Part shown: positions 12,758 to 43,495 of the stretch, one piece after another | How the letters are laid out: the number at the start of each line of letters is the position of its first letter | Numbering within the stretch: position 1 is the first letter of the stretch | DNA from: Draconibacterium orientale | GTDB taxonomy: Bacteria; Bacteroidota; Bacteroidia; Bacteroidales; JAADGE01 | Assembly: GCA_020721645.1 (NCBI GenBank) | Contig: DYMH01000002.1 | Coordinates: forward strand, 4,793 to 68,792 | Reading direction: 5' to 3' | DNA: 64,000 nucleotides | Translations under genes and position numbers: made by a program | Notes under the pieces: model-generated | What the model saw: only the letters and a program-made list of their open reading frames with translations | The model's database searches: none | Told to the model about the DNA's origin: nothing

Positions 12758-15700
12758 ATGGAAAATCCCGTTCGCTATCAAACCAAAAATAATGTCAGAA
12801 TCGTAACAGCCGCTTCCCTTTTCGATGGGCATGATGCTTCTATCAACGTCATGCGACGCATTATTCAGGCATCAGGTGCCGAAGTTATTCACTTGGGACA
12901 CAACCGTTCGGTACAGGAAATTGTCGATTGTGCAATACAGGAAGATGCTCAGGCTGTTGCAATTACGTCATATCAAGGTGGGCATATCGAATTTTTCAAA
13001 TACATGTACGATTTGTTTAAAGAAAACGGTCGCCAAAACATCAAAATCTTCGGCGGGGGCGGAGGCGTAATTCTTCCTTCGGAAATCAAAGAATTGCAGG
13101 AATACGGCATTGCACGCATCTATTCGCCCGACGACGGTCGCCAAATGGGACTGCAAGGCATGATTAACGATTTGCTCCAAAAATCGGATTATTCCATTTC
13201 TGAAATTCCCGAAAACATTGTAAAAAAAGTTTCGGAAAAAGATGTAAAATCCATAGCCCGACTCATTTCTTGTGTCGAAAATATATCTGCTGAATCAGAT
13301 AATACGATGAGCGAAATTCGCGAAATAGCGAAACAAAAAAAAATCCCCGTTCTGGGCATCACCGGAACCGGTGGAGCAGGAAAATCCTCTTTGGTCGATG
13401 AATTGGTTCGTCGATATACCGAAAATGCACCCAAAAAATCAATTGCCGTCATCTCGGTAGATCCCACAAAACGCAAAACAGGAGGTGCATTGCTCGGCGA
13501 TCGCATTCGCATGAATGCCATCAGCCGCCCGAATGTTTATATGCGATCCCTTGCCACTCGGCAGGCAAATTTGGCGATGTCGCCATACGTAAAAGACGCT
13601 GTTGAAATAGTAAAAGCCGCCGGATACGATTTAGTCATTCTCGAAACCTCCGGAATCGGACAATCGGACACCGAAATCACCGAGCACAGCGATTTAACAT
13701 TGTACGTAATGACTCCCGAATACGGTGCAGCTACGCAATTGGAAAAGATTGATATGTTGGATTTTGCCGATTTAATTGCCATCAACAAATTCGACAAACG
13801 CGGTGCCGCAGATGCACTCCGTGATGTGAAAAAACAATATCAACGCAACAATGAACTGTTCGACATAGATTTGGATTCGATGCCGGTTTTCGGAACCGTT
13901 GCCTCACGTTTCAACGACCACGGAGTAAATGTTTTATATAAAGAAATCATCAAAAAACTTTCAGAAAAATTCGGTTTCCTGTTACCCGAAAAACAAGCCA
14001 TACAAGCCGAAATGTCGAGCGATGTGATTATAATTCCGCCGCAAAGAACACGTTATTTGTCCGAAATATCGGAAACCGTTCGAAAATATAACGATTGGAG
14101 CGAAAAACAGGCACAAATCGCAGATACACTTCAATCTCTTAAAAAAACATCGGATTTATTAAAAGACGAAACATCAAAATTACCTATTTCGAATTTAATC
14201 AAAGAAAAAGAAGTTTATTTGGACCATCAAAATAAAAAGATACTCGAAAATTGGTCGAATGTTGTAAAAAAATATACCGAACTTCAGTACATTTACCAAG
14301 TTCGCGGAAAAGATATTTGTGTCGATACATATACCGAAAGTCTTTCTCATCTTAAAATTCCGAAAATTTCCCTGCCCAAATACCGCAACGAAGGCGATAT
14401 TTTGAAATGGAATTTGCGTGAAAATGTTCCGGGTGAATTTCCTTATGCAGCCGGCGTTTTCCCCTTCAAAAGAGAAGGAGAGGACCCCACCCGTATGTTT
14501 GCCGGCGAAGGCGGTCCGGAACGCACAAACAAACGGTTTCACTATGTTTCGCTCGGACTTCCCGCAAAACGACTTTCAACGGCTTTCGATTCCGTAACAT
14601 TATACGGCGAAGATCCTGATATTCGTCCCGATATTTACGGAAAAATAGGAAATGCAGGCGTTTCCATAGCTTGTTTGGACGATGCCAAAAAACTCTATTC
14701 CGGGTTTGATTTATCCGATGCAAAAACTTCTGTATCGATGACCATTAACGGTCCCGCACCGATTATGACCGCGTATTTTATGAATGCCGCCATAGACCAG
14801 CAATGTGAAGTTTACATTCACAAAAACGGTTTGGAAAAAGAAATCGAACTGAAAATTGAAGAAATTTATAAGATAAAAGGAACGAAACGACCTCAATATC
14901 AAGGCGAATTGCCTGAAGGAAACAACGGATTGGGATTGATGTTGCTTGGTGTTACAGGAGATATGGTTTTGCCTTCGGAAATTTACGAAAATATCAAAAA
15001 AGAGACCATTTCGAAAGTTCGCGGAACTGTTCAGGCAGATATTTTGAAAGAAGACCAAGCCCAAAATACTTGCATTTATTCTATCGATTTTTCGCTCAAA
15101 CTCATGGGAGATATGCAAGAATATTTCATCACACATGATGTTGGGAATTTTTATTCTGTTTCAATATCAGGTTATCATATTGCAGAAGCCGGAGCGAATC
15201 CGATTTCGCAATTGGCTTTCACGCTGGCAAACGGTTTTACGTATGTAGAATATTACATTTCGCGCGGAATGAAGGTCGATGATTTTGCTCCGAATCTCTC
15301 GTTTTTCTTTTCCAACGGCATCGATCCCGAATATTCCGTGATGGGACGCGTGGCTCGCCTGATATGGGCAAAAGCCATGAAACTGAAATACAACGGAGAT
15401 GAGCGTTCGCAAAAACTGAAATATCACATTCAAACTTCCGGTCGCTCGCTGCATGCACAAGAGATTGATTTTAACGATATTCGTACTACTTTGCAAGCTT
15501 TGTATGCGATTTACGATAATTGCAATTCGTTGCACACCAATGCCTACGACGAAGCAATTACCACGCCCACCGAAGAATCGGTTCGCCGTGCGATGGCAAT
15601 TCAGTTGATTATTAACCATGAATTGGGTTTGGCAAAAAATCAAAATCCCTTACAAGGTTCGTTTATCATCGAAGAACTTACAGATTTGGTCGAAGAAGCA

Positions 15701-16120
15701 GTCCTTTCGGAATTTGACCGAATTACGGAGCGAGGCGGCGTTCCGGGGGCAATGGAAACGATGTATCAACGCGGAAAAATACAAGAAGAATCGCTGTATT
15801 ACGAAAACTTGAAACACACTGGGAAATTGCCGATTATGGGGGTGAACACCTTTTTATCTTCAACAGGTTCACCGACCGTAACGCCGGGAGAAGTGATTCG
15901 TGCCACGGAAGAAGAAAAAAGGTATCAAATTGAAATGTTGAAAGAATTACATCAATTTAACAAAGAAGAGAGTCGCGAAGCAGCAGAAATGCTGAAAACG
16001 GCAGCCATTCAAAACCAAAACGTTTTTGCAGAACTGATGAACGCTGCAAAAAAGTGTTCAATTGGTCAAATGACGGCAGCTTTGTTTCAGGTAGGCGGGC
16101 AATATAGAAGGAATATGTAA
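12758..16120 (+). CDS. icmF: Fused isobutyryl-CoA mutase (B12-binding domain + MeaB-like GTPase + mutase catalytic domain)
   Basis: 1120 aa. N-terminal DGHDASINV...IHLGHNRS (DxHxxG B12 motif), P-loop [13 protein letters not shown], and a C-terminal methylmalonyl-CoA-mutase-like TIM barrel. Confidence 0.85.
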
Positions 16121-16306: not shown

Positions 16307-16942
16307 ATGGAAATTATCAGCGTAATAATTTGCGATGACCATGTGATATTCCGAAAAGGTTTGAGAACGATTTTAAATGAAATTTCGGATATTAAAGTTG
16401 TCGGAGAAGCTGCCAACGGAAAGGAACTTCTGGATTTATTGAAACAAACACCTGCCGATGTTATTTTAATGGATATAAAAATGCCTGTAATGGACGGTAT
16501 TGAAGCGACCCGAAAAGTTTCGGCTTCGTATCCTGAGAGTAAAATTATTGCATTAAGTATGCATGAAGAAATCGGCTATTTTAACTCGATGACAGAAGCC
16601 GGTGCATTGGGCTATCTTCTAAAAAAAACGAATAAAGACGAGCTTCGAAATGCCATTAATGCAGTGATGGACAATGAAAACTATTTCTCGGAAGAATTTA
16701 TGAGCAATATCAATAAAAATGCACTTCCGAAGAAAAAATCAAGTGTAAAACTCTCGGACCGCGAGTTGGAGGTGCTGGAATTGGTTTGTAAAGGATTTTC
16801 GAATCTCGAAATTTCACAACAACTTGGGCTTAGTCAGCGTACTGTGGACGGACATAAAGCACGGCTTTTTGAAAAAACAGGTGCCAAAAATGCTCCTAAT
16901 TTGGTGCTTTTTGCCGTGAAAAATGGATTTATAAGTATGTGA
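16307..16942 (+). CDS. NarL/LuxR-family response regulator (REC + HTH_LuxR)
   Basis: 211 aa. Receiver with DVILMDIKMP; C-terminal LSDRELEVLELVCKGFSNLEISQQLGLSQRTVDGHKARLFEK. Confidence 0.9.
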   Translation: MEIISVIICDDHVIFRKGLRTILNEISDIKVVGEAANGKELLDLLKQTPADVILMDIKMPVMDGIEATRKVSASYPESKIIALSMHEEIGYFNSMTEAGALGYLLKKTNKDELRNAINAVMDNENYFSEEFMSNINKNALPKKKSSVKLSDRELEVLELVCKGFSNLEISQQLGLSQRTVDGHKARLFEKTGAKNAPNLVLFAVKNGFISM

Positions 16943-17122: not shown

Positions 17123-17149
17123 TAGGGTAGAAATACCCTATTTTTTTTT
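17123..17149 (+). terminator. Intrinsic terminator (orphan position)
   Basis: TAGGGTA-GAAA-TACCCTA followed by T9. It lies about 180 nt after the nearest upstream plus-strand stop codon. Confidence 0.55.
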
Positions 17150-17245: not shown

Positions 17246-17743
17246 ATGGCAACTTCAAAAAAAATTTTATTAGTCGATGATGATATAGATGTTATTTCGG
17301 TAATGCAAACCCTTTTGGAACACGAAGGTTATACAATAATTACCGCATCGAATAAAAAAGAAGGTATTCGATTGGCAAAAGAGCAAAAACCGGATTTGGC
17401 TATTCTTGATGTCATGATGACTTCCCAATTTGAAGGTTTTGAGTTGGCAAAAGAGCTTTACGATGACGAAGATTTAAAACGTATGCCTAAATTATTCCAA
17501 ACCTCGGTCGAAGTGTTTTCGAGCAATAATGCCGATGTGGTGGAAATGGCAAAAGAATATCGCAAAGACCCGAGACATCGCGAATTGGAAGTGATTTTGG
17601 TGGAAGACCAAAAAACCGGTAAAGCCGGTGTAGATTATCGAAATGAAGAAGGTAAATGTATTTGGGTTTCTGTTGATGGTTTCATCAAAAAACCAGTCGA
17701 TTCCAAAAAATTGCTGCCCGCCGTTAATCGACTTTTAAAATAA
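17246..17743 (+). CDS. Stand-alone receiver-domain protein (CheY-like with short C-terminal extension)
   Basis: 165 aa. Motifs: KILLVDDD, PDLAILDVMM, FIKKPVD. No output domain. Confidence 0.85.
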   Translation: MATSKKILLVDDDIDVISVMQTLLEHEGYTIITASNKKEGIRLAKEQKPDLAILDVMMTSQFEGFELAKELYDDEDLKRMPKLFQTSVEVFSSNNADVVEMAKEYRKDPRHRELEVILVEDQKTGKAGVDYRNEEGKCIWVSVDGFIKKPVDSKKLLPAVNRLLK

Positions 17744-17818
17744 TGGACAATTGATAATTGACAATGGAAAATTGTTGATAAAAAAATAATTCTAATTATC
17801 AATTATTCATTATCCATT
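17742..17818. repeat. Word-based imperfect palindrome (AATGGACAATTGATAATTGACAATGG vs AATTATCAATTATTCATTATCCATT)
   Basis: The arms match at 20 of 25 positions when the right arm is reverse-complemented. It starts inside the stop codon of the receiver gene and contains the recurrent 11-mer TTGACAATGGA. Confidence 0.7.
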
Positions 17819-17950
17819 AAAAAATAAGGCTTTAGTTCTATTTCTATATTCGAGGGATTTTATCCCGCATAATGAGTGTTTGGTTTCAGAGAGTCGGGAG
17901 GAAAGTGTTCCGGCTCTTTGTTTAAAACTTTAAAAAGAAAATTAATACCA

Positions 17951-18415
17951 ATGGATTTAATTCAAAATATCGATACAATTATCGAAAAATATCCGAAATC
18001 GGAACGTCCGAATTTAATTCCGCTGCTTCAAGATTTGCAAGAACATCAAGGATTTTTGTCCGAAGAGGCAATGGTAAAAGTGGGCAAACATTTGGCTGTT
18101 CCGGTAAGCAACATCTACGGTGTGGCTACTTTTTACAATCAGTTCAAATTTGAGCCGTCTGGGAAATATCATATCAAGGTTTGTCGCGGAACGGCTTGTC
18201 ATGTTTTGGGATCTTCAACGGTTTTGGTTGAATTGGAAAAACAATTGAAAATTAAAGCCGGCAGCACTTCTCGCGATAAAATGTTCAGCCTCGAAGTCGT
18301 TGCCTGTATCGGAGCCTGCGGATTGGCTCCCGTTATCAGTGTTAATGATACTTTTCATGCAAAAGTCAGTGCAGCTTCAATCAAGGAAATTATCGAAAGT
18401 TACAAAAATATGTAA
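17951..18415 (+). CDS. hydC: [FeFe] hydrogenase small diaphorase subunit, NuoE/HndA-like [2Fe-2S] thioredoxin-like ferredoxin
   Basis: Motifs: LIPLLQDLQEHQGFLS, CRGTACHV, ACIGACGLAP. The ATG at 17951 is preferred over the GTG at 17876 in the ORF track, because the extension has no homology-like content and covers leader hairpins. Confidence 0.85.
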   Translation: MDLIQNIDTIIEKYPKSERPNLIPLLQDLQEHQGFLSEEAMVKVGKHLAVPVSNIYGVATFYNQFKFEPSGKYHIKVCRGTACHVLGSSTVLVELEKQLKIKAGSTSRDKMFSLEVVACIGACGLAPVISVNDTFHAKVSAASIKEIIESYKNM

Positions 18416-18477: not shown

Positions 18478-20403
18478 ATGATGTTAGCAACCGATATAAA
18501 ACCACTTTTAAAAAATTTCAACGAATACAAAACGGGGAAATCGGAATTAAAAGCAGAGTTTAAAGAAAAAAATCCGACAAAACCTGTTATTTACGTTGGA
18601 GCCGGAACCTGCGGATTGGCAGCCGGAGCAGACAAAACTCTGGCAAAAGTTCGCGAATATTTAAAAAATAAAAACATAGAAGCCGATGTAACCGAAACCG
18701 GATGCATCGGTTTGTGTTCTTCCGAACCATTGATGGACGTTCAAATTCCGGGTTTTAACCGAATTTCTTTCGAATTTGTAAGCGAAGACAAAGTTGAAGG
18801 AATTTTAGACCAAATTTTTGCCTTAAACACTCCAAAATCCAATATTTTGGCTCAATTCAGAAGCAAAGATTTCAGAATTTGGGAAAATGTTCAATTTTTA
18901 GACGAACATCCTTTTTTCAAACCGCAAATGAGATTTGTACTGAAAAATTGCGGAATTATCAATCCGGGAAGCATCGAAGAATATATTTTGCGAGGCGGAT
19001 ATGCGGCTCTTTTAAAAACATATTCCGATTATCAACCGGTTGATATTTGCGACATTATAGAAAAAAGCGGCTTACGCGGACGCGGCGGCGGTGGATTTCT
19101 CACCGGACGAAAATGGAAATTTGCTTTGGGAACCGAAAGCGATCATAAATACCTGATTTGCAATGCAGACGAAGGCGACCCCGGAGCATTTATGGACCGT
19201 GCCGTGATTGAAGGCGACCCGCACCGATTGATTGAAGGTATGGCAATTGCTGCCTACGCAATCGGAGCCGAAACCGGAATCGTATATATTCGTGCTGAAT
19301 ATCCGCTGGCTATCAAACGTTTGAAAGTTGCTCTGAAACAAGCAAAAGAAAACGGTTTGCTCGGCGATAATATTCTGGGAACAGGCAAAAAATTGGAAAT
19401 CAAAATAAAAATGGGTGCCGGTGCATTTGTTTGCGGCGAAGAAACCGCTATGATTCACAGCATCGAAGGAAAACGAGGAATGCCTCGTCCTCGCCCGCTT
19501 TTTCCGGCTGTCAGCGGATTGTTTGGGAAACCTACTGTTATTAATAACGTGGAAACTTTGGCAAACGTACCGTACATTCTTGAAAATGGTGCCGAATCGT
19601 TCAATTCTCTTGGAACCGAAAAAAGTAAAGGAACAAAAGTTTTTGCACTGTCCGGAAAAATTTCACTCACCGGTTTGGTCGAAATTCCGATGGGAACCAC
19701 CGTTCGCGAAGTGCTTTTCGGAATTGCCGGCGGCATAAAAAACGGAAAAAAATTCAAAGCCGTACAAATCGGCGGACCTTCCGGAGGGTGCATCACAGAG
19801 CAAAATCTGGATATTCAAATCGACTACGAATCACTGATTCAAGCAGGTGCCATGATGGGTTCCGGAGGTTTGGTGGTGATGGACGAAGACAATTGCATGG
19901 TCGATGTGGCAAAATTTTTCATGGATTTTATTCAACGCGAAAGCTGCGGAAAATGTATTCCGTGCCGAGAAGGAACAGCCCGAATGCTCGAAATTCTCGA
20001 AAACATCACCCACAAACCCGGCTCGGGCGAAAGCCACAGTGCTTTGGAGCGCATTAACGGTGTGATTCAACTCGAAAAACTCGGTCAGGTGATTAAAGAA
20101 ACATCGCTTTGCGGACTCGGACAAACGGCTCCAAATCCCGTTCTCAGCACCTTGCGTTGGTTTCGGCACGAATACGAGCAACATATTTTCGATCGTAAAT
20201 GCGCTGCCGGTGTATGCACCGAATTGCGTACTTTTAAAATTGATGTTGATAAATGTACCGGCTGCACCATTTGTGCCAAAAAATGCCCAACAGGAGCTAT
20301 TATCGGCGGGAAAAAAACACCGCATTTTATTATCGAAGAAAAATGTATCGCCTGCGGTGCCTGCGATGAAGCCTGTAAATTTGATGCAATTTTAATTTTT
20401 TAA
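18478..20403 (+). CDS. hydB: [FeFe] hydrogenase flavoprotein subunit, NuoF/HndC-like (FMN, NADH, Fe-S)
   Basis: 641 aa. N-terminal thioredoxin-like domain; SGLRGRGGGGFLTGRKW; CNADEGDPGAF; ESCGKCIPCREG; C-terminal 2x[4Fe-4S] (CTGCTICAKKCP, CIACGACDEAC). Confidence 0.9.
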   Translation: MMLATDIKPLLKNFNEYKTGKSELKAEFKEKNPTKPVIYVGAGTCGLAAGADKTLAKVREYLKNKNIEADVTETGCIGLCSSEPLMDVQIPGFNRISFEFVSEDKVEGILDQIFALNTPKSNILAQFRSKDFRIWENVQFLDEHPFFKPQMRFVLKNCGIINPGSIEEYILRGGYAALLKTYSDYQPVDICDIIEKSGLRGRGGGGFLTGRKWKFALGTESDHKYLICNADEGDPGAFMDRAVIEGDPHRLIEGMAIAAYAIGAETGIVYIRAEYPLAIKRLKVALKQAKENGLLGDNILGTGKKLEIKIKMGAGAFVCGEETAMIHSIEGKRGMPRPRPLFPAVSGLFGKPTVINNVETLANVPYILENGAESFNSLGTEKSKGTKVFALSGKISLTGLVEIPMGTTVREVLFGIAGGIKNGKKFKAVQIGGPSGGCITEQNLDIQIDYESLIQAGAMMGSGGLVVMDEDNCMVDVAKFFMDFIQRESCGKCIPCREGTARMLEILENITHKPGSGESHSALERINGVIQLEKLGQVIKETSLCGLGQTAPNPVLSTLRWFRHEYEQHIFDRKCAAGVCTELRTFKIDVDKCTGCTICAKKCPTGAIIGGKKTPHFIIEEKCIACGACDEACKFDAILIF

Positions 20404-20505: not shown

Positions 20506-22230
20506 ATGAACTTCAATATCGAAATAAATAATAAAACGGTTGAAGCCGTACAAGGCGAAACTATTTTGGATACTTTAAAACGAAACGGCGTAAAAGTTCC
20601 CACTTTGTGTCATCTCAAAGGCATGTTGCCAACCGGAGCCTGCCGAATTTGTATCGTAGAAAACGAAACAACCGGAAAATTGATTCCTTCGTGCTCGCAA
20701 CCCGTGGAAACAGGAATGAAAATTCTCACACATTCGCCTCGTGTGAACGAATCGCGAAAAACGATTATCGAACTTTTGTTGTCGAATCACCCTGACGATT
20801 GTTTGTATTGTGTACGAAACAAGAATTGCGAATTGCAAGACTTGGCAGAAACATATCAAGTGCGTGAAAGACGCATCAGAGGCAAAAAAAACAAACATCA
20901 TTTGGATCTTTCCGGAACGTCAATTGTTCGCGATCCCGCCAAATGTATCCTGTGCGAGCGATGTGTGCGAGTGTGCGATGAAGTTATGGGAGTTTCGGCA
21001 ATCGAAATATTGTATCGAGGAAGTAATTCTGTTGTTGGAACAGCTTTCAACAAAGGATTAAATACATCGAGTTGCATTAATTGCGGTCAATGTATTATGG
21101 TTTGCCCAACGGGTGCTCTGAGCGAAAAAAGCCATTTCCCCGAATTAATTGAAGCTCTGAAAGATAAGAAAAAGAAAGTTGTGGTTCAATATGCTCCTTC
21201 GATTACGGTTTCTTTGGCTGAGGAATTTAATATGAAGCCGGGCGAAGACATTAACGGATTGTTAAATGCCGCTTTGCGAAAAATCGGTTTCGATAATGTT
21301 TTTGATACCACATTTACTGCCGATTTGACCATTATGGAAGAATCTGCCGAGTTGATACAACGCATAACGGAAAACAAAAATCTGCCGCTCATCACGAGTT
21401 GTTGCCCGGGCTGGGTGAAATATGCCGAAGAATTTGCTGATGATTTTATTCCGAATATTTCATCGTGTAAATCGCCCCAACAAATGATGGGAGCTGTAAT
21501 TAAATCATATTTTGCCCAACAAATCAATACAAAACCCGAAGAAATTTATTCGGTTTCGATAATGCCTTGCACGGCAAAGAAATTTGAAATGCAACGGGTT
21601 GAAATGAACAGAAACGGAATCAACGATGTTGATGCTGTTCTCACAACACGCGAAATATCGAAATTATTCAAACTTTTTGGTATCGACATAAAATCTTTAG
21701 AACCCGAAACCGCCGATTCTCCAATGGGAATCCGCAGTACGGCAGGAAAATTGTTTGCAAATACGGGAGGCGTGATGGAAGCTGCATTGCGAACAGCACA
21801 TTTCAAACTTACGGGAAAAGAATTGGTGAATTTCAAAATTCCCCAAGTTCGCGGTCTGGACGGAATTAAAGAAGCCAAAATGACTATTGCCGGAATAGAA
21901 GTGGGAGTAGCCGTGGTGAGCGGATTGGCAAATGCACAAAAATTATTGCAGGAAATTCGCAACGGACGAAAAGACCTTCATTTTATTGAAATTATGGCTT
22001 GCCCCGGAGGCTGTATCAGCGGAGGCGGACAACCAATCAACAGCGATGAATCGATACTCAGAAGCCGTATTAAGGCGATATATGCTATCGACCATCGAGA
22101 ATCGATAAAAGTATCGCACAAAAATCCGGAAATTATCGAAATTTATCAAAATTTCCTCGAAAAACCACTCAGTCATAAAAGCCACGAATTACTCCACACT
22201 CACTACGAAAAACGTGATGTACTTAAATAA
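20506..22230 (+). CDS. hydA: [FeFe] hydrogenase catalytic subunit (M3-type, group A; bifurcating-type by gene context)
   Basis: 574 aa. N-terminal 2Fe-2S (CHLKGMLPTGACRIC), HPDDCLYCVRNKNC, two Fer4 motifs. H-cluster motifs TSCCPGWV, MPCTAKKFE, EIMACPGGCISGGGQP. Confidence 0.92.
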   Translation: MNFNIEINNKTVEAVQGETILDTLKRNGVKVPTLCHLKGMLPTGACRICIVENETTGKLIPSCSQPVETGMKILTHSPRVNESRKTIIELLLSNHPDDCLYCVRNKNCELQDLAETYQVRERRIRGKKNKHHLDLSGTSIVRDPAKCILCERCVRVCDEVMGVSAIEILYRGSNSVVGTAFNKGLNTSSCINCGQCIMVCPTGALSEKSHFPELIEALKDKKKKVVVQYAPSITVSLAEEFNMKPGEDINGLLNAALRKIGFDNVFDTTFTADLTIMEESAELIQRITENKNLPLITSCCPGWVKYAEEFADDFIPNISSCKSPQQMMGAVIKSYFAQQINTKPEEIYSVSIMPCTAKKFEMQRVEMNRNGINDVDAVLTTREISKLFKLFGIDIKSLEPETADSPMGIRSTAGKLFANTGGVMEAALRTAHFKLTGKELVNFKIPQVRGLDGIKEAKMTIAGIEVGVAVVSGLANAQKLLQEIRNGRKDLHFIEIMACPGGCISGGGQPINSDESILRSRIKAIYAIDHRESIKVSHKNPEIIEIYQNFLEKPLSHKSHELLHTHYEKRDVLK

Positions 22231-22259
22231 TTGATAATTCATAATTCATAATTAATAAG

Positions 22260-24260
22260 GTGCCTGTTTACAACGATACATTTCCGCTTGTTTTTACCGT
22301 CAAAGGTCGATGCCGTGTGTGTTACACGTGCATCCGGGAATGTCCGGTGAAGGCGATAAAAATCATCAACGGACAAGCCGAAATCATTACCGAACGCTGT
22401 ATTGCCTGCGGAAACTGTGTAAGAGTTTGCAGTCAGGAGGCAAAGGCATTTGCAAAATCCATCGACCGAGTTTGGCATTTGCTCGAATCGGACGAAAAAA
22501 CGGCAGCGGTTATCGCACCTGCATTTCCCGCCGAATTTGACGAGTTGCCTGATTATCGAAATTTGGTAGGTGCACTTCGTTCTTTGGGATTCGATTATGT
22601 GATAGAAACCGCATTCGGTGCGGATATCGTGGGACGAGAATATTCCCGTTTGTTGAAGAAAAACACGGAAGGAACAGTCATTTCCTCCGATTGCCCGGCG
22701 ATTGTCAATTATATCACATATTATCACCCCGAACTTTCGGAAAAGCTTGCTCCAATTGATTCTCCGATTATGGCAGCTGTGAAAGTAGTGAAGAAAAAAT
22801 ACGGCGATAATGTAAAAATTGTGTTTATCGGTCCGTGTATTGCCAAGAAATTGGAATTGGAAGACCCCAATGAAGTTCTTACTTTTTCGGAATTGCGGGA
22901 AATGTTCGATATGCAGAAAATTGATATTTCACAATCAGAAATTTCGGAATTCGACGAACCTTTTGCCGGAAACGGAGCTGTTTTCCCGATTAGTCGAGGT
23001 TTATTAAGAAATTTGCGAAAACCGGAACATATTACCGAAAGTGATGTTATAGTAACTCACGGACATGTTAATTTTCGAGATGCAGTTGATGAATTTAGAG
23101 AGGGTGATGTTGATTGTAAATACATGGAACTCTTGTGTTGTAATGGGTGCATTATGGGACCCGGAATGACGAAAAAGGGACAACGTTTTAAAAAACGAAC
23201 ATTGATTACAAATTATGTTCGCGAAAAACTCAAAAAACTCGATAAACCCACCTGGCGAAAAGAAATGACTCAATATGAAGATATTGACTTCAGCCGAACA
23301 TTCGATGGTTACAAACATCAAACTAAACTGCAACTGAAAAAAGAAGAAATTCAGGAAGTTTTGTTGAAAATGGGGAAAACCAAGCCCGAAGATCATCTCA
23401 ATTGCGGAGCTTGCGGATATGCCACATGTTTGCTGCATGCCGAGGCAATTGTGGAAGGACTTGCCGAAACCGAAATGTGTTTGCCCTACACCATCGAAAA
23501 ATTGCACGAAACGGTTGAGAAAATGGACCTTACAAATAAAAAATTGTCATCGGCTCGTCAGGCTTTAAAACAATCGGAAAAATTGGCAGGAATGGGACAA
23601 CTTTCTGCCGGAATTGCACACGAACTAAACAATCCGCTCGGTGTTATTACAATGTACAGTAATTTGTTATTGGAAGAAGCAAATCCGGATTCGCAAATGT
23701 ATGCCGATTTGAAATTGATTGCCGAACAAGCCTGCCGATGTAAAAATATTGTCGGTGGATTGCTCAATTTTGCCAGAAAAAATCAGGTGAAAACAACAGA
23801 ATGCAATTTTACCGAATTTGTAAAAAGCAGCATTTCTTCAATTTTAAAACCTGATAATATCAGCGTTTTATTTGATTCGAAACTTACAAATCCGAAAGTA
23901 AATATCGACATCGAACAAATGATGCAAGTGCTTACGAATCTCGAAAAAAATGCAGTGGAAGCAATGTCCGACGGCGGCGAATTGATGATTCGTATTTCCG
24001 AAGAAGGCAACAGTGTGATTTTGGAAGTAGAAGACACCGGAACAGGAATATCGAAAGAAAATATGGACAAAATTTTCACGCCGTTTTTCACAACAAAAGA
24101 ATTCGGAAAAGGAACAGGGCTCGGACTTCCGCTGATTTACGGAATTATAAAAATGCACATGGGAAAAATTTCCGTTGAATCGAACGATAAACCCGAAAAC
24201 GGACCGACCGGAACAAAATTTATTATCAGATTACCTCGAAATTTTCAATTCAATACTTAA
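22260..24260 (+). CDS. hydS: HydS-like sensory [FeFe]-hydrogenase domain fused to a histidine kinase (Fer4 + H-domain-like + Cx2Cx4Cx16C Fe-S motif + HisKA + HATPase_c)
   Basis: 666 aa with a GTG start. CRVCYTCIRECP and CIACGNCVRVC; H-domain-like motifs SSDCPAIVNY, GPCIAKKLE, ELLCCNGCIMGPG aligning with the HydA motifs; CGACGYATC-x16-C; then H-box SAGIAHELNNPLG and N/G boxes (NLEKNAVEAM, DTGTGI, GKGTGLGLP). Confidence 0.85.
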   Translation: MPVYNDTFPLVFTVKGRCRVCYTCIRECPVKAIKIINGQAEIITERCIACGNCVRVCSQEAKAFAKSIDRVWHLLESDEKTAAVIAPAFPAEFDELPDYRNLVGALRSLGFDYVIETAFGADIVGREYSRLLKKNTEGTVISSDCPAIVNYITYYHPELSEKLAPIDSPIMAAVKVVKKKYGDNVKIVFIGPCIAKKLELEDPNEVLTFSELREMFDMQKIDISQSEISEFDEPFAGNGAVFPISRGLLRNLRKPEHITESDVIVTHGHVNFRDAVDEFREGDVDCKYMELLCCNGCIMGPGMTKKGQRFKKRTLITNYVREKLKKLDKPTWRKEMTQYEDIDFSRTFDGYKHQTKLQLKKEEIQEVLLKMGKTKPEDHLNCGACGYATCLLHAEAIVEGLAETEMCLPYTIEKLHETVEKMDLTNKKLSSARQALKQSEKLAGMGQLSAGIAHELNNPLGVITMYSNLLLEEANPDSQMYADLKLIAEQACRCKNIVGGLLNFARKNQVKTTECNFTEFVKSSISSILKPDNISVLFDSKLTNPKVNIDIEQMMQVLTNLEKNAVEAMSDGGELMIRISEEGNSVILEVEDTGTGISKENMDKIFTPFFTTKEFGKGTGLGLPLIYGIIKMHMGKISVESNDKPENGPTGTKFIIRLPRNFQFNT

Positions 24261-24353: not shown

Positions 24354-24749
24354 ATGACTGAAATTAAAAAAAATATTCTCATCGTTGATGACGACCCCGA
24401 TTCTCTCGCTTTGATGACAATGCACGTTGAACGATTTGGTTTTAATGCCATTACGGCAGACAGCCAAAAAGCCGGCGAAGCAATTCTCGAAAAACAAAAA
24501 CCCGATTTAGCTATTCTGGATTTGATGATGGAAAAAGAAGACAGCGGTTTTATATTAGCATATCGCTTAAAACAAAAATATCCTGACGTTCCTGTTATTA
24601 TCGCAACAGCCGTTACAAAAGAAACCGGAATGGTTTTCGGAATCAATTACGAAGAAGAACGAAAATGGATTAAAGCCGATTTGTATCTCGAAAAAAATAT
24701 TCGTCCCGACCAATTACAGCGCGAAATTAACAGACTTTTGAAGCTGTAA
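24354..24749 (+). CDS. Stand-alone receiver-domain protein (CheY-like)
   Basis: 131 aa. Motifs: NILIVDDDPD, PDLAILDLMM, LEKNIRP. No output domain. Confidence 0.9.
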   Translation: MTEIKKNILIVDDDPDSLALMTMHVERFGFNAITADSQKAGEAILEKQKPDLAILDLMMEKEDSGFILAYRLKQKYPDVPVIIATAVTKETGMVFGINYEEERKWIKADLYLEKNIRPDQLQREINRLLKL

Positions 24750-24771: not shown

Positions 24772-24810
24772 AAGACACAAGAATGGGAAATGACTCATTT
24801 CTTGTGTCTT
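24772..24810 (+). promoter_or_regulatory. Perfect 12-bp intercistronic stem-loop of the AGACACAAG family
   Basis: AAGACACAAGAA (24772-24783) pairs with TTCTTGTGTCTT (24799-24810), with a 15-nt loop. The ORF-track ATG at 24783 begins at the last base of the left stem arm and runs into the loop. Confidence 0.75.
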
Positions 24811-24836
24811 TGGACTCACATCTCATATCAAAACAC

Positions 24837-25952
24837 ATGATACCATTAAAAGTTTTAGCGGTTGACGATGAATTTGGCATTCGCAAAGGCATCAGTCGAA
24901 TTTTAAACAATTTCAATGTCGATTTTCCGTTTTTGGAAGAAGCTTTTAATTACGAAATTATCGAAGTTGAAACCGGCGAATCGGCTCTCGAAATTCTAAA
25001 TTCAGAAAAAATTGATATTGTTTTGTTAGACAATCAATTGCCCGGTATTCACGGAACCGAAGTTTTGCAACAAATCAACGAACGCGGCTACGATTGTGCT
25101 GTGATGATGATAACGTCATACGCTTCACTTGAATTGGCTGTTGAAGCCACAAATAAAGGAGCTTTCAATTTTGTGCCGAAACCTTTTACGCCGCAAGAAT
25201 TGCGCGATGCGATTGAAAGCATCACCAAACACTTGTATTTGAAGCGAATGACACGCAAAATGAACGAGGAAGGACGCGAAACTCGTTTCCAATTTCTTTC
25301 GGTTCTTTCGCACGAGTTAAAATCGCCGATTAACGCAGTGGAAGGCTATTTGCGAATTATGCAGGACAAACAATTGGGCGAAAATATCGACGATTATCAA
25401 ACAATGCTCGGTCGTTCTTTGGAGCGCCTCAAAGGAATGCGCGGATTGATTTTCGATTTGCTTGATTTTACGCGGATTGAAAGCGGAAAGAAGAAACGCA
25501 ATTTACAAAAAATCGATATTATTAAAATAGCAAAAACATCGCTTGAATCAATAGAACCGGCGGCTTTGCAGAAAAATACAGAATTTATTTGCAATTTGCC
25601 CGAAGAATTGGAGATGACAGGCGACAGCGGCGAATTTGAGATTATTTTCAATAATTTGCTTTCCAATGCCGTGAAATACAACGTGAACAACGGGAAAGTG
25701 TTTTTTGTTATCAGCAACAATTCCGGGAAAATTCGCATTTCGGTAAAAGACACCGGAATAGGCATGAGTGCCGACGAAACCGCAGCATTGTTTAAAGATT
25801 TTGTTCGCATCAAAAACGAAAAAACAAAAAACATCACCGGCAGTGGCTTAGGTTTGTCGATTATGAAAAAAATCGTTGAAATGTACGGCGGAACAATTCA
25901 TGTGCTGAGCGAACCGGAAAAAGGAACAGAATTTATTGTTGATTTTCCGTAA
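24837..25952 (+). CDS. Hybrid receiver - histidine kinase (REC + HisKA + HATPase_c)
   Basis: Receiver (LKVLAVDDE, IDIVLLDNQLPG, FVPKPF), H-box LSVLSHELKSPIN, ATPase boxes (NLLSNAVKYN, DTGIGM, GSGLGLS). The ATG at 24837 is preferred over 24783 because of the hairpin. Confidence 0.85.
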   Translation: MIPLKVLAVDDEFGIRKGISRILNNFNVDFPFLEEAFNYEIIEVETGESALEILNSEKIDIVLLDNQLPGIHGTEVLQQINERGYDCAVMMITSYASLELAVEATNKGAFNFVPKPFTPQELRDAIESITKHLYLKRMTRKMNEEGRETRFQFLSVLSHELKSPINAVEGYLRIMQDKQLGENIDDYQTMLGRSLERLKGMRGLIFDLLDFTRIESGKKKRNLQKIDIIKIAKTSLESIEPAALQKNTEFICNLPEELEMTGDSGEFEIIFNNLLSNAVKYNVNNGKVFFVISNNSGKIRISVKDTGIGMSADETAALFKDFVRIKNEKTKNITGSGLGLSIMKKIVEMYGGTIHVLSEPEKGTEFIVDFP

Positions 25953-28055
25953 TTATATCTCATCTTTTATTGTTATCATTACAAACATTCCTTTTCCGTC
26001 TTCGCTGTTAAAATCGCATTTTCCGCGAATTGTTTTTATTTTATTGGCAATATTTCCCAAGCCCATTCCTGCTCCTTCCCGCATCATTTTGTCGATGTCG
26101 AAACCAACGCCGTCATCGCGATAATAAAGAATAATCAAGTGATTCACGTTTTTAAGTTCTATTGTTATTTTGGAAGCTTGCGAATGTTTTATTGTATTGT
26201 TAATTAATTCTTTAATTGATTGATAGAGAATAGTTTCCACAATATCATGCTTTTCGCGTATATAATTTTCGGTATTCAGCTCAATTTCAACCGATTTGCT
26301 GTTTTGTACAAATGCAATAAAATCGTTTACGGCAGCAGCCAAACCGAAATCCTGCAAATTTCCCGGAGCAATATTTTTTGAAATTTGCTTGGTTGTTTTT
26401 ATGGCTTCATCGACTAATTCATCGATATTTTGTGCAATTTCCGTAATGCTGATTTTGTTGAAATCTCCTTTTTTCAATAAATCGCTGTACAACTTTGCTG
26501 TTGAGAGAATTGGTCCCAAATCGTCGTGCAAATCGCCGGCAAAACGTTTGCGTTCCTTATCTTCTGTTTCAATAATTGCCGTTACAAGCTTTTTTTCCAA
26601 AGCTTTTCGTTCGGTAATATTTCGTGCAATGCTTAAAATTGCTTCTCTTCCCGCAAAATCAAACAAACGACTTTTCATTTCATATGAAATAACTGTTCCC
26701 GACTTGGAAATATGTTCAGTTTCGTAAACATAATAACCTTTTTCACGTACTGTTGTTAATATTTCATTAACTTCTTGTCTGTAAAATGATGTTTTAATAT
26801 CGTGAAGTCGCATTTTAAGTAATTCTTTTTTTGAATAGCCCAAACTTTCGCATGTTAATTTGTTCATTTCCACAAAATAACCGTTGAAATCAACAAGATA
26901 AATTTCATCGCCGCTGTTCTCGAAAAGCAATCGGAATTTTTTTTCGGATTCCTCAAGATCTGCCTGCGTTTTAATGAGTTTCTTATTATAATCGGCAATT
27001 TCCTTGATATATGAAATCAGTTTCCGGGTAGTGAAAAAATAGACAAAAACAGACAATAAAATGAAAATTAAAACTCCGAGAATTAACGAACGGATAATAA
27101 TGTTTTTGACCATTACAGATGCTGTTTCGTCTTCGTCAACTGTCGCAATCACATACAAATCGAAGTTTTCAAAATATGAAAAAGCTGTAATTTGTCGATT
27201 TTTAGGCGATTGATTTGTAGGTCTGAAACTCCCGTTTTTTTGATTCTGTATCATTTCAAAAATTTGCTGATTGAAAGACCCGTTTTTTGAATCGGAACTT
27301 TGAACAACAATTTCTCTTTTATTATTGATAATGAGAATATCACCGGGAATTTCTACTTTAAAATTTTTGATAATCTTTGAAATTTCAGATAAATCCTTTT
27401 CTTTTACTCCAACATAAAGCATTCCAATTATTTTGTCTTTATTAAAGATAGGTTCGTAAGCTGCAATATACCAGTCATTTACAACAAAAGCCCGACCAAA
27501 AAACGAATTCCCTTTTTCGATTGATTTCACAACTTCCGAACTGTTTGGAATGTAGGTATATAAAGCCCGTGAATCATCTGAATTTCTGACATTTGTCGAA
27601 ATTCTCACAAAACCGCTGTCAGTTTTTTGAAAAATGGTTGAAGTACAATGTGTAATTTCCTGAATTTTATCGACGGCGGAAAAGTCAGCAGAAATATCTT
27701 TTCCGCTTAAAAACCAGTAATTCAATGGTGATTGAATTGAAATTCCTGTATTTTGGTCGATAATTTGTTCGAGATTTTTTTGGGGTTGAATTTTCAAAGT
27801 CGAGGAATGGAAATAATCGTGAAAGAATCTCAAATTTTCCTTTACTTTCTCGGTTTTCAGACTTTTTTCACGCTCAAAAATACCAACTATTGTTTGAGTT
27901 TCAAGCAGTAAACTTTTTTCGCTTGCTTCAAAAACCGTTTGTTTCGATGTTTGAACCGATTGAAAGGTTATGGCAAAAACCGAAGCCGCAATACCGATAG
28001 CCAGCGGAGAAAAAATTTTCAATCGAATAAGTCGTCGCGGATATTTTAGTTTCAT
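25953..28055 (-). CDS. Membrane sensor histidine kinase (Cache-like periplasmic domain + PAS + HisKA_3 + HATPase_c), NarX/LiaS-type
   Basis: 700 aa. TM - about 290-aa extracytoplasmic domain - TM; PAS region (FRLLFENSGDEIYLVD); H-box FAGDLHDDLGPILS typical of HisKA_3; C-terminal ATPase (DDGVGFD, GMGLGNI). Confidence 0.85.
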   Translation of the reverse strand: MKLKYPRRLIRLKIFSPLAIGIAASVFAITFQSVQTSKQTVFEASEKSLLLETQTIVGIFEREKSLKTEKVKENLRFFHDYFHSSTLKIQPQKNLEQIIDQNTGISIQSPLNYWFLSGKDISADFSAVDKIQEITHCTSTIFQKTDSGFVRISTNVRNSDDSRALYTYIPNSSEVVKSIEKGNSFFGRAFVVNDWYIAAYEPIFNKDKIIGMLYVGVKEKDLSEISKIIKNFKVEIPGDILIINNKREIVVQSSDSKNGSFNQQIFEMIQNQKNGSFRPTNQSPKNRQITAFSYFENFDLYVIATVDEDETASVMVKNIIIRSLILGVLIFILLSVFVYFFTTRKLISYIKEIADYNKKLIKTQADLEESEKKFRLLFENSGDEIYLVDFNGYFVEMNKLTCESLGYSKKELLKMRLHDIKTSFYRQEVNEILTTVREKGYYVYETEHISKSGTVISYEMKSRLFDFAGREAILSIARNITERKALEKKLVTAIIETEDKERKRFAGDLHDDLGPILSTAKLYSDLLKKGDFNKISITEIAQNIDELVDEAIKTTKQISKNIAPGNLQDFGLAAAVNDFIAFVQNSKSVEIELNTENYIREKHDIVETILYQSIKELINNTIKHSQASKITIELKNVNHLIILYYRDDGVGFDIDKMMREGAGMGLGNIANKIKTIRGKCDFNSEDGKGMFVMITIKDEI

Positions 28056-41831: not shown

Positions 41832-41911
41832 CCGCATTGCATCAGGAGTGAGAATCCGACAAAAACTCAAAACTCGAAGTTCCCGTTACAAAACCTGAAT
41901 CAGTGTTAAGC

Positions 41912-43213: not shown

Positions 43214-43287
43214 GCCGGTGTAGCTCAGTTGGCCAGAGCAGCTGATTTGTAATCAGCTGGTCGGCGGTTCGAATCCGTCCACCGGCT
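43214..43287 (+). tRNA. tRNA-Thr (TGT)
   Basis: Acceptor GCCGGTG/CACCGGC, anticodon stem GCTGA/TCAGC, loop TTTGTAA, T-loop TTCGAAT. Confidence 0.9.
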
Positions 43288-43315
43288 CAATTTTTTTATG
43301 TACGTTTTAAAGTTT

Positions 43316-43397
43316 GGGGAGATTCCAGAGCGGCCAAATGGGGCAGACTGTAAATCTGTTGTCTTCGACTTCGGAGGTTCGAATCCTCCTCTCCCCA
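43316..43397 (+). tRNA. tRNA-Tyr (GTA)
   Basis: Acceptor GGGGAGA/TCTCCCC, anticodon loop CTGTAAA, long variable arm, T-arm GGAGG-TTCGAAT-CCTCC. Confidence 0.9.
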
Positions 43398-43413
43398 CAA
43401 AAACGCAAAGCAT

Positions 43414-43486
43414 GCGGGAGTAGCTCAGTTGGTAGAGCGGCAGCCTTCCAAGCTGCAGGTCGCGGGTTCGAACCTCGTCTCCCGCT
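43414..43486 (+). tRNA. tRNA-Gly (TCC)
   Basis: Acceptor GCGGGAG/CTCCCGC, anticodon stem GCAGC/GCTGC, loop CTTCCAA. Confidence 0.9.
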
Positions 43487-43495
43487 CTTTTTAAA

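Follow-up and report, generated by a model that had tools for sequence, protein, structure and literature searches.

Does the gene directly downstream of hydCBA encode an H2 sensor that signals through its own kinase domains? We analyzed the whole stretch of DNA around this gene (64,000 nucleotides, hereafter the window). On balance, the protein, which we call hydS-HK, is probably a Group C (C1-type, kinase-linked) sensory [FeFe]-hydrogenase that is fused to its own transmitter and is a putative sensor of H2.

Domain organization of hydS-HK

The gene and its N-terminal domains are:

22260..24260, + strand: hydS-HK, whole ORF (666 aa, GTG start), a fusion of a sensory-type [FeFe]-hydrogenase and a histidine kinase
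22305..22439, + strand: F-domain with two Cx2Cx2Cx3C [4Fe-4S] motifs (C18/21/24/28 and C47/50/53/57), matched by Fer4_10, Fer4, Fer4_9, and Fer4_7
22497..23174, + strand: H-domain (H-cluster binding fold), aa 80-305, supported by PF02906, phmmer, AF2, and Foldseek

We confirmed the order of the domains: two [4Fe-4S] ferredoxin motifs, the H-domain, a Cx2Cx4Cx16C Fe-S domain, a helical linker, and a HisKA/HATPase_c transmitter. The sequence-only reading had described two Fer4 motifs and an H-domain-like region, and profile and structure searches bear this out. In Pfam, the Fer4-type motifs are at aa 16-60, and Fe_hyd_lg_C (PF02906) matches aa 80-301 (E 2.7e-47; 161.9 bits, with a cut-off of 22.1) across positions 2-245 of the 245 in the profile. 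The H-domain is also similar to TmHydABC alpha (7p5h; phmmer E 2e-25). In the AF2 model, the pLDDT of the H-domain core is mostly 75-96, and Foldseek matched the N-terminal part to CbA5H, DdH, and CpI (E about 1e-18 to 1e-15). Among the CpI chains in the sequence search, 6GLZ, an entry listed as the C299D variant, scored best.

There are at least 120 full-length homologues of hydS-HK, and a protein that is 100% identical to it is present in a JGI metagenome (P0001). Seven of the eight F-domain cysteines are kept in 120/120 relatives; the other, C18, is kept in 117/120, and the remaining three proteins are N-terminally truncated. (Two minus-strand ORFs, 22239-22727 and 23004-23507, overlap hydS-HK. 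It is the plus frame that is backed by Pfam domains and by conserved homologues.)

The H-cluster site and the proton-relay position

We aligned hydS-HK with the HydA from the window and with PDB chains, and we give residue equivalences in the CpI numbering. The three motifs of the H-cluster site are:

22680..22697, + strand: L1 motif ISSDCP; D144 (nt 22689-22691) is at the Cys299 position and C145 is equivalent to the cubane ligand Cys300
22830..22856, + strand: L2 motif GPCIAKKLE; G191 occupies the Met353 position, and C193, K196, and E199 are equivalent to Cys355, Lys358, and Glu361
23127..23165, + strand: L3 motif ELLCCNGCIMGPG; L292 occupies the Met497 position, and C294 and C297 are equivalent to Cys499 and Cys503 (bridging)

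These motifs are present as the sequence-only reading had quoted them, and they align one-to-one with those of HydA (SSDCP with TSCCP, GPCIAKKLE with MPCTAKKFE, and ELLCCNGCIMGPG with EIMACPGGCISGGGQP). A one-residue deletion in L3 means that the cluster cysteines are spaced Cx2C instead of Cx3C; this spacing is general across the sensory representatives. The sequence-only reading mentioned neither this deletion nor the Asp in L1. The claim that all four cubane cysteines are kept also held: C145, C193, C294, and C297 (C300, C355, C499, and C503 in CpI) were aligned and are present in 120/120 relatives. G191, K196, and E199 are each conserved in 120/120 as well, so that the equivalents of Lys358 and Glu361 are invariant, as is the equivalent of P324.

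The proton-relay position sets this clade apart. Where CpI has Cys299, the leading residue of the catalytic "CC" pair in L1, 120/120 clade members have Asp, as against 0/149 of the other diverse sensory representatives. Sensory groups usually have Ala, Pro, or Ser at this position instead of a protonatable residue (PMC10055695), and both of the characterized HydS enzymes have Ala (Ala131 in TmHydS and Ala137 in TamHydS; PMC8163306, PMC10055695). Behind position 299, the proton path is gone: Ser319 is replaced by Ala, the segment with Glu279 is deleted, and Glu282 is variable. Thus hydS-HK resembles the sensory groups in having a small residue (Gly) at the Met353 position and in having lost both Cys299 and the relay. 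Residues 299/353/497 are A/G/S in TmHydS and A/S/L in TamHydS, and both proteins bind the H-cluster (PMC8163306, PMC10055695). Judging by the alignment, G353 and L497 in hydS-HK are sensor-type substitutions that match these enzymes.

Could the H-domain hold just the [4Fe-4S] cubane, as in Nar1/Narf-type proteins? If so, hydS-HK would be a redox sensor kinase without the [2Fe] subcluster, and its four or five Fe-S clusters would report ferredoxin or NADH poise, not H2, to the kinase. We consider this rather unlikely. It would fit with the absence of the canonical proton pathway beyond position 299 and with the Leu at the Met497 position, as the M497L variant of a prototypical enzyme did not integrate the [2Fe] subsite (PMC10055695). 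Also, for some C1 proteins, from Hydrogenedentota, the authors doubted from the H-cluster motifs that their sequences bind the H-cluster (PMC11406978). But TamHydS, with a natural Leu497, and TmHydS, with Gly353, both incorporate the H-cluster (PMC8163306, PMC10055695). The invariance of the four cysteines and of K358, E361, and P324 argues against a cubane-only site too, and an invariant Asp exactly at the amine-contacting position is hard to explain without [2Fe]-adt.

The aspartate raises another alternative: hydS-HK might serve mainly as a catalytic subunit or as part of a complex, adding a module to HydABC, with Asp transferring protons and a kinase that is secondary or degenerate. Asp is the only substitute for Cys299 that sustains turnover in CpI, HydA1, and CaI (PMC6226526, PMC9563086). 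The engineered Cys-to-Asp variants keep 30-80% of the H2-release activity, and the carboxylate forms a hydrogen bond with the adt amine (PMC6226526). CpI C299D, CrHydA1 C169D, and CaI C298D (PDB 6GLZ, 8PVM) do share the Asp at the amine-contacting position with hydS-HK, but their downstream relay is intact (Glu279, Ser319, Glu282, and Arg286) and they are still fast catalysts, whereas the relay residues behind the Asp of hydS-HK are missing. Furthermore, G353 and L497 are of the sensor type, and activity is very low in the characterized HydS enzymes (PMC6226526, PMC8163306). Although a published scheme for Hydrogenedentota depicts Group C3 proteins as the "T subunit" of bifurcating complexes (PMC11406978), we think that a mainly catalytic role is quite unlikely, and the kinase and the neighboring genes (below) also bear on this.

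The accessory Fe-S domain, the linker, and the kinase

The C-terminal features are:

23403..23480, + strand: accessory Fe-S motif C382-x2-C385-x4-C390-x16-C407, with the clade-specific H393 (PF04060)
23481..23594, + strand: helical linker between the Fe-S domain and the dimerization helix of the kinase, aa 408-445, with H416 (AF2)
23595..23783, + strand: HisKA / DHp domain, with the phospho-acceptor H454 at nt 23619-23621 (PF00512)
23907..24239, + strand: HATPase_c, with the N box (560), G1 (592, DTGTG), F (606), and G2 (616, GKGTGL) (PF02518)

The exact Cx2Cx4Cx16C motif that the sequence-only reading had placed here is real: aa 380-409 match the "Putative Fe-S cluster" family (PF04060; E 2.9e-10), and C382, C385, C390, C407, and H393 are all conserved in 120/120 clade members. 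H393 is found in just 9% of the other sensory representatives. Similarly, H416 in the linker is invariant in the clade and is found in 3% elsewhere. In the AF2 model, the linker is helical at 408-432, and 422-458 is modeled with low confidence.

The claim of a complete HisKA/HATPase_c transmitter in place of a PAS domain was also correct. HisKA (PF00512) matches aa 446-508 (E 3.2e-12), and the H-box SAGIAHELNNPLG, which contains H454, is invariant in 120/120 save for one conservative L/I position. HATPase_c (PF02518) matches aa 550-660 (E 1.1e-23). We located the H, N (560-564), G1, F, and G2 boxes, so this is an intact kinase of the HisKA family, and in an alignment of 31 sequences, H454, N564, D592, G594, G596, F606, and G616-G622 are invariant. 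Foldseek matched the C-terminal part to the kinase core of ZraS (9jfj; E 4.9e-18). A kinase that is fully intact, with this conservation of the H-box and the core boxes, argues against the idea that hydS-HK is chiefly a catalytic subunit.

Relatives and classification

Close relatives of hydS-HK are all from Bacteroidales or from Bacteroidota MAGs, and a T9SS Por_Secre_tail protein is encoded in the window; both support the placement of the DNA in a Bacteroidota genome by the sequence-only reading. In our scan of genome contigs, the relatives were from MAGs only, with a best identity of 62%.

Does hydS-HK belong to the sensory hydrogenases? On NCBIfam, it scores far below the cut-offs for Group A (111 bits against 406 for FeFe_hydrog_A, and 109 against 765 for A6), and it does not reach the cut-off for the Group B profile either (TIGR04105; 187 bits against 450). 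A prototypical or bifurcating Group A enzyme would show the motifs TSCCP, MPCxxKxxE, and ExMxCxxGCxxGGGQP and the relay residues; hydS-HK instead has Asp299, Gly353, Leu497, and Ala319, and the Glu279 segment is gone. It does have the two [4Fe-4S] motifs, the H-domain, and the Cx2Cx4Cx16C domain that characterize HydS-type proteins of Groups C and D (motif definition in PMC8163306), and it is linked to a group A hydrogenase, as those proteins are, both here and in 17/17 related loci. As for an association with histidine kinases, one kinase is fused within the polypeptide and a second is encoded two genes downstream. The nearest diverse representatives are kinase-fused and are 42-49% identical, while PAS-type proteins are 33-42% identical (mostly 35-38%). 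These identities are consistent with HydDB Group C1.

HydDB lists "[FeFe] Group C1, histidine kinase-linked (putative)" as a predicted H2 sensor (PMC5037454), so the kinase-linked class is, as had been suggested, a prediction. One example is ING2E5A_0849 from Petrimonas mucosa, a cultured member of the Bacteroidota: this Group C1 hydrogenase is encoded beside hnd genes (PMC7768429). Like hydS-HK, it has a sensory-type H-domain associated with a histidine kinase, beside HydABC/Hnd in a Bacteroidota host, and a (putative) role in H2 sensing was proposed. Group C1 is defined by clustering of sequences and does not require a fusion; the best C1 match in HydDB lacks HATPase_c (PMC11406978). Compared to that reference set, hydS-HK, a probable C1 member judging by its identities to diverse representatives, has a complete fusion and a clade-invariant Asp at the Cys299 position. 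In the searchable literature up to April 2026, the only characterized sensory enzymes are TmHydS and TamHydS, and none is kinase-fused (PMC13104023), in line with the earlier statement that the class lacked biochemical characterization.

The sequence-only reading did overstate the rarity and interest of the protein. This is a large and strongly syntenic family in the Bacteroidales, and the case from P. mucosa had already been reported (PMC7768429). The type of hydS-HK was already predicted and is common in Bacteroidales; it is neither rare nor new in kind. Because the class is on record, the value of this work is in a well-defined candidate and in new residue-level detail, not in the discovery of a new system. 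As read from the alignments, what is added is the clade pattern of Asp at position 299, the missing relay, and the two clade-specific histidines, in the Fe-S domain and in the linker.

The locus and the conserved gene cassette

The neighbors of hydS-HK are:

16307..16942, + strand: LuxR/NarL-type response regulator (REC + GerE HTH; Pfam)
17246..17743, + strand: REC_17246, an atypical single-domain REC of 165 aa, just upstream of hydC (Pfam, partial)
17942..18415, + strand: hydC (NuoE-like; Pfam, NCBIfam)
18478..20403, + strand: hydB (NuoF-like; Pfam, NCBIfam)
20506..22230, + strand: hydA, group A [FeFe]-hydrogenase (NCBIfam FeFe_hydrog_A6, 820 bits, cut-off 765)
24354..24749, + strand: REC_24354, a single-domain response regulator of 131 aa (PF00072)
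24783..25952, + strand: REC-HisKA-HATPase_c kinase of 389 aa, the second conserved member of the cassette (Pfam)

The genes upstream of hydS-HK are thus hydCBA, as had been read from the sequence, and this HydABC-type group A [FeFe]-hydrogenase is likely to be the target that hydS-HK regulates. The cassette hydC-hydB-hydA-sensor kinase-REC-(REC-kinase) is found in 17/17 related loci, and also in L053; in all 17, hydCBA is immediately upstream of the sensor kinase. The gap from the hydA stop to the hydS-HK start is just 29 nt, and a terminator scan found no terminator-like site in it, so the two genes are apparently in the same operon, which would also suit an extra subunit of HydABC. (The scan found 12 terminator-like sites against 12.3 in shuffled sequences, which is no excess, and only a hairpin at 17123-17140 was convincing. 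We ignored promoter calls because the sigma-70 consensus is unsuited to Bacteroidota.)

Conservation of two REC-containing partners downstream argues against a mainly catalytic role for hydS-HK. A counterpart of REC_24354 lies directly downstream in relatives wherever the contig extends (52-67% identity; also in L052 and L053), and REC_24354 is a likely phosphoryl acceptor of hydS-HK. The 24783 kinase is kept in related loci as well (53-65% identity). The closest paralogue of REC_24354 is REC_17246 (E 3e-18), for which the Pfam match covers the profile only up to position ~77 of 111. Besides REC_24354 and the REC domain of the 24783 kinase, REC_17246 and the LuxR-type regulator are candidate receivers for hydS-HK. 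REC_17246 has counterparts in L001, L003, L014, and L015, and L053 has a 164-aa REC at the same position (by Pfam only).

The cassette itself lacks a DNA-binding output. Apart from the LuxR-type regulator, which we view as a candidate for the terminal regulator, no DNA-binding two-component output is encoded near the operon. This regulator is upstream in just 4/17 related loci, and the terminator-like hairpin at 17123-17140, with a T-run after it, lies between it and the operon. We also looked upstream of hydC for a conserved operator or a sigma-54-type element. There is a 25-nt inverted repeat in the window at 17741-17819, but when we aligned the REC-hydC spacers from the window, L001, L003, L014, and L015, we found no sequence conservation (43% mean column identity), so we claim no regulatory site there. 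The spacers of L001 and L003 carry different repeated or palindromic stretches of their own.

In relatives, hydG/F/E or rex are often 3' of the cassette, and the hydG/F/E genes directly downstream have scores that exceed the curated cut-offs. Maturases encoded there argue against an H-domain without the [2Fe] subcluster, although they would serve HydA too. Rex is another redox regulator, so its presence in related loci makes redox control of the locus plausible and is a point in favor of a redox sensor. Using HydG, HydF, HydE, and Rex from related loci as queries, tblastn found nothing in the 64-kb window, so the capacity for maturation cannot be confirmed from the window.

A proposed model for H2 sensing

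The model that we infer for hydS-HK as a kinase-linked H2 sensor, from [2Fe] insertion and H2 dependence to the phosphotransfer partners, the regulated target, and the sign of regulation, is as follows. The N-terminal module (the two F-clusters and the H-domain) would bind an H-cluster made by HydE/F/G that would be encoded elsewhere in the genome, and the H-cluster would split H2 slowly. Asp144, in place of the usual Cys, would be both the hydrogen-bond partner and the proton acceptor of the bridging amine; the retained activity and the amine contact of the engineered Cys-to-Asp variants (PMC6226526) favor this. Because the canonical relay behind Asp144 is missing, the site should be an equilibrium reporter of H2 pressure and not a fast catalyst. 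The redox or conformational state would pass through the Cx2Cx4Cx16C cluster domain and a helix of ~35 residues to the DHp helix, where it would set the autophosphorylation of His454. Phosphoryl groups would then move to the adjacent 131-aa REC and/or to the REC domain of the next kinase, and this two-kinase cascade would adjust the expression or activity of the co-encoded HydABC.

For HydS homologues, there are genetic hints of a regulatory role from hfsB (PMC5707799) and from RaHydS (as cited in PMC8924675). In TamHydS, however, H2 does not reduce the C-terminal cluster (PMC13104023), and this speaks against a simple redox relay by way of it. Against the H2-sensor model, we also counted the lack of hydE/F/G in the window, the loss of the subsite with M497L, the doubt about H-cluster binding in the Hydrogenedentota C1 proteins (PMC11406978), and the lack of a DNA-binding output in the cassette.

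Instead of H2, hydS-HK could sense another ligand of the H-cluster (O2 or CO) as a signal of inhibition or damage and shut down the expression of the hydrogenase. Both CO and O2 do react with the H-cluster, and in TamHydS, O2 gives rise to a stable state of an unusual kind (PMC8163306). But we have no specific evidence for this, CO affinity is lowered in HydS enzymes (PMC8163306), and the conserved linkage is to an H2-metabolizing enzyme and its maturases. We consider this very unlikely.

A more speculative version of H2 sensing, which we doubt, is that the Bacteroidales clade is a mechanistically distinct type of [FeFe] H2 sensor. In this version, the bridging amine would contact the invariant Asp and, with no relay behind the Asp, the proton from H2 cleavage would be trapped. 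His393, within the C-terminal cluster domain, and His416, where the output helix begins, might link this protonation, or a redox change, to the kinase helix.

Comparison with related systems, and implications

HydS from Thermotoga maritima (Group C, M2f), a putative sensory enzyme, is similar to hydS-HK in its two N-terminal [4Fe-4S] motifs, H-domain, Gly at the Met353 position, and C-terminal Cx2Cx4Cx16C cluster. It too has lost the proton pathway of group A and is encoded near a bifurcating hydrogenase (PMC8163306, PMC10055695). In contrast to hydS-HK, with its Asp299, Leu497, and HisKA/HATPase_c transmitter, TmHydS has a C-terminal PAS domain but lacks a kinase, and it has Ala and Ser at those two positions. 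HydS from Thermoanaerobacter mathranii (Group D, M2e) shares the F-domain, the H-domain, the C-terminal cluster, and the Leu at the Met497 position, and its gene neighbors both a bifurcating hydrogenase and a gene for a histidine-kinase-like ATPase (PMC8163306). A sub-millimolar Km(H2) has been reported for this enzyme. It differs in having no fused output domain, in having Ala at 299 and Ser at 353, and in its Group D-specific Glu252/Glu289 proton path (PMC10407848). According to PMC5707799 and PMC5037454, the [NiFe] systems HoxBC-HoxJ-HoxA and HupUV-HupT-HupR (group 2b) follow the same logic, from a slow hydrogenase to a histidine kinase to hydrogenase genes. However, their metal site and fold are unrelated, and their sensor and kinase are separate and dock via PAS, whereas hydS-HK is one polypeptide with no PAS domain.

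Identifying the interaction partners of sensory [FeFe]-hydrogenases was called critical in April 2026 (PMC13104023). Because hydS-HK and its relatives carry the partner kinase in the same chain as the sensor, autophosphorylation that depends on H2 could be assayed directly. If the clade were a distinct type of sensor, then with this read-out in the same polypeptide, it would be the first system in which H2 signaling by an [FeFe]-hydrogenase could be followed from end to end. Many anaerobic Bacteroidales, major fermenters of sediments, digesters, and similar habitats, carry the cassette, so it may govern how they tune H2 production to ambient H2. Finally, the natural Asp at the proton-relay position offers a ready-made test of ideas from engineered Cys-to-Asp variants.

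Domain architecture and fold

The ORF downstream of hydA had been read, from the sequence alone, as a sensory [FeFe] hydrogenase fused to a histidine kinase; both the observation and its interpretation stand. An H2-responsive sensor kinase is the likeliest reading of this protein, and we consider it probable.

Genes and sensor domains
17942-18415: hydC, upstream of the sensor ORF
18478-20403: hydB, upstream of the sensor ORF
22260-24260 (+): sensor ORF, 666 aa, starting 29 nt past the hydA stop
sensor aa 16-60: two ferredoxin-type 4Fe-4S motifs (Pfam)
sensor aa 80-301: Fe_hyd_lg_C (Pfam, E = 2.7e-47)
sensor aa 380-409: PF04060, "Putative Fe-S cluster" (Pfam, E = 2.9e-10)
sensor aa 446-508: HisKA (Pfam)
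sensor aa 550-660: HATPase_c (Pfam)

This domain order is unambiguous. The profile matches to Fe_hyd_lg_C and PF04060 bear out the proposed H-domain and Fe-S domain, all of the quoted motifs are where the sequence-only reading placed them, and the claimed Cx2Cx4Cx16C motif occupies exactly 23403-23480. The sensor falls below the NCBIfam cut-offs of group A and group B hydrogenases, and the window's HydA, at 820 bits, clears the curated threshold of 765 for NADH-dependent group A6 hydrogenases. A role of the sensor chiefly as a catalytic or complex-bound subunit seems improbable to us.

When the sensor was compared to PDB with phmmer, the top match was the alpha subunit of Thermotoga HydABC (E = 2e-25), and the highest-ranked chain of CpI (the [FeFe] hydrogenase whose numbering is used below) was 6GLZ, a C299D variant. 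The AlphaFold model of the sensor has a mean pLDDT of 73.7, with most of the H-domain core at 75-96. It resembles CbA5H, DdH, CpI, and HydABC across about 410 residues, and its C-terminus matches the kinase core of ZraS.

Conserved residues and an aspartate at the Cys299 position

We aligned the sensor with 119 homologues (120 sequences) and with the window's HydA, which coincides with CpI numbering at the motifs.

Active-site positions (CpI residue: sensor residue, conservation)
Cys300, Cys355, Cys499, Cys503: C145, C193, C294, C297, 120/120
Lys358, Glu361, Pro324: K196, E199, P169, 120/120
Met353: Gly191, 120/120
Met497: Leu292, 120/120
Cys299 (proton relay): Asp144, 120/120
Ser319: Ala164, Ala in 114/120

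The sensor's four H-cluster cysteines are thus kept, as had been proposed, and they are invariant in its relatives. The four C-terminal cysteines are also unchanged in all 120 sequences, and the H-box SAGIAHELNNPLG is invariant except for one conservative L/I position. In L3, a one-residue deletion gives Cx2C, a spacing shared with other sensory representatives. Farther along the canonical route for protons, Glu282 varies and the segment with Glu279 has been lost, so all of the path behind Asp144 is missing.

In the characterized HydS enzymes of Thermotoga maritima (TmHydS) and Thermoanaerobacter mathranii (TamHydS), the Cys299 position is alanine (A131 and A137; PMC10407848). HydDB sensory sequences have Ala (~43%), Cys (17%), Pro (~10%), or Ser (~10%) (PMC10055695), and our tally of 150 diverse representatives is consistent with these proportions. 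Just 1 of the 150 has Asp: a 283-aa fragment that probably represents the sensor's own cluster. Asp is the sole substitution of Cys299 that leaves prototypical enzymes active (30-80% of H2 release), and in the crystal structure of CpI C299D, the Asp carboxylate forms a hydrogen bond with the adt amine (PMC6226526). The change also moves the bias towards H2 evolution (PMC9563086). That the sensor responds to CO or O2 instead of H2 is, in our view, highly improbable.

We screened sensor aa 60-420 for positions that are fixed in at least 97% of the clade (the Bacteroidales kinase-fused homologues) and in at most 12% of sequences elsewhere. This yielded only Asp144 and two histidines, a clade-specific Asp/His/His signature that is of interest in itself:

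23436-23438: His393 (Cx2Cx4C-x2-H-x13-C), within the C-terminal cluster domain, invariant in the Asp clade
23505-23507: His416, start of the helix to the kinase, invariant in the Asp clade

Other sensory hydrogenases mostly have Lys and Glu at the two histidine positions.

A conserved six-gene cassette

In 17 species-representative genomes, the gene order is hydC, hydB, hydA, sensor kinase, a 131-aa response regulator (REC), and a REC-HisKA-HATPase kinase (tblastn with each window protein; the order holds at each locus as far as the contig extends). Separate gene calls on one further contig give the same order. This strict conservation is also of interest. The cassette core has no DNA-binding domain.

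Upstream, four related loci share the window's arrangement of a LuxR-type regulator and an atypical REC. Nine others have a divergently transcribed PAS-type HydS paralogue, a gene that is absent from the window. We read four of these in full:

L005:3269-5134 (-): HydS-like paralogue upstream of hydC
L010:3345-5234 (-): HydS-like paralogue upstream of hydC
L020:3748-5619 (-): HydS-like paralogue upstream of hydC
L008:3772-5673 (-): HydS-like paralogue upstream of hydC

These PAS-type proteins (621-633 aa) have Leu or Asn at position 299. Those of L020 and L008 lack the Cys499-equivalent cubane ligand (FYNEGC and FYDEGC), so they may not hold an H-cluster.

Of the 111 positions in the REC profile, the window's atypical REC (17246-17743, 165 aa) matches only the first ~77. 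Its C-terminal half is divergent or extended, and its nearest paralogue is the 131-aa REC. It is conserved in L001, L003, L014, and L015, and in L053 the corresponding place is taken by a gene for a 164-aa REC. Between the stop of the window's atypical REC and hydC (17741-17819) lies an AT-rich inverted repeat of 25 nt (84% complementary, with a 29-nt loop) that could serve as an attenuator, processing site, or operator. Its sequence is not conserved in the corresponding spacers of related loci; by eye, those of L001 and L003 seem to bear different repeats of their own.

Downstream of the cassette, relatives encode Rex and/or HydG, HydF, and HydE, all over curated NCBIfam cut-offs:

L003:13534-17331 and L005:13592-14239: hydG-hydF-hydE and/or Rex directly after the cassette (hydrogenase island)

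None of these four proteins was found anywhere in the 64-kb window, where a Cache-PAS-HisKA_3 kinase, a CAAX protease, and an Fe-ADH occupy that position instead. The sensor could be an Fe-S redox sensor without the [2Fe] subsite; with every H-cluster cysteine invariant, we consider this unlikely.

The Cache kinase (25953-28055 (-), 700 aa, Cache_3-Cache_2/PAS/HisKA_3) is convergent with the cassette's end. The only homologue seen near a cassette, in L015, is upstream and in a different orientation, so this kinase is probably outside the conserved system. HisKA_3 kinases usually pair with NarL/LuxR regulators, and by analogy it may partner the LuxR-type regulator at 16307.

Abundance and predicted signaling

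A word-indexed search found at least 120 full-length relatives (~660 aa) that are 57-84% identical to the sensor and share its Pfam architecture. Those with named sources are from Bacteroidales or Bacteroidota MAGs, and one sequence, from a JGI metagenome, is identical to the sensor. When the sensor module by itself was searched exhaustively against representatives, 4,937 cluster representatives matched at E <= 1e-3, of which 970 reached E <= 1e-30; among the best 150, the C-terminus is a homologous kinase in 44, a PAS-like domain in 45, and something else in the rest. Together, the full-length relatives and these 44 kinases imply that the fusion is a large, established family.

Group C1 hydrogenases have been reported before: one near hnd genes in Petrimonas mucosa (PMC7768429), and C1 proteins with HATPase_c in Hydrogenedentota, whose H-cluster motifs were doubted (PMC11406978). 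The only characterized sensory enzymes, TmHydS (Group C, PAS) and TamHydS (Group D), were still the models in April 2026; the C-terminal cluster of TamHydS is not reduced by H2, and identifying interaction partners of HydS enzymes has been called for (PMC13104023). We found no biochemistry on any kinase-fused member in the open-access literature, in agreement with the earlier statement that none has been characterized. The sensor, whose architecture, conservation, fold, and synteny we show here, adds a member to a class that is predicted, abundant, and uncharacterized; as a system it is not new in kind.

As an H2-responsive kinase, the sensor would hold an H-cluster in sensor-type surroundings that reacts slowly with H2, and Asp144 would take up the proton. 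The C-terminal cluster domain and then a helix of ~35 residues (aa 408-445) could relay the change of state to the DHp helix, and so set phosphorylation of His454. The phosphoryl acceptors would be the adjacent REC, the REC-kinase, or both; with the sensor, they might form a two-kinase cascade controlling HydABC. We infer cofactor insertion and H2 dependence, and likewise which partners and target are involved and in which direction control acts. Such a kinase would offer a single-polypeptide test bed for [FeFe] H2 signaling.

Other features of the window

65-3646 (-): alpha-amylase-domain protein of 1,193 aa whose C-terminal Por_Secre_tail, a T9SS sorting signal, is in keeping with a Bacteroidota origin
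8496-10412: second alpha-amylase
12758-16120: protein of 1,120 aa that fuses a B12-binding domain, MeaB GTPase, and methylmalonyl-CoA mutase domain
41903-42787: tyrosine recombinase/integrase gene, adjoining a five-tRNA cluster (43214-43567)
43618-44805: EF-Tu, followed by another tRNA (44870-44942)

The B12-binding fusion closely precedes the region of two-component and hydrogenase genes, and its domain order is that of the IcmF-type fused acyl-CoA mutases.
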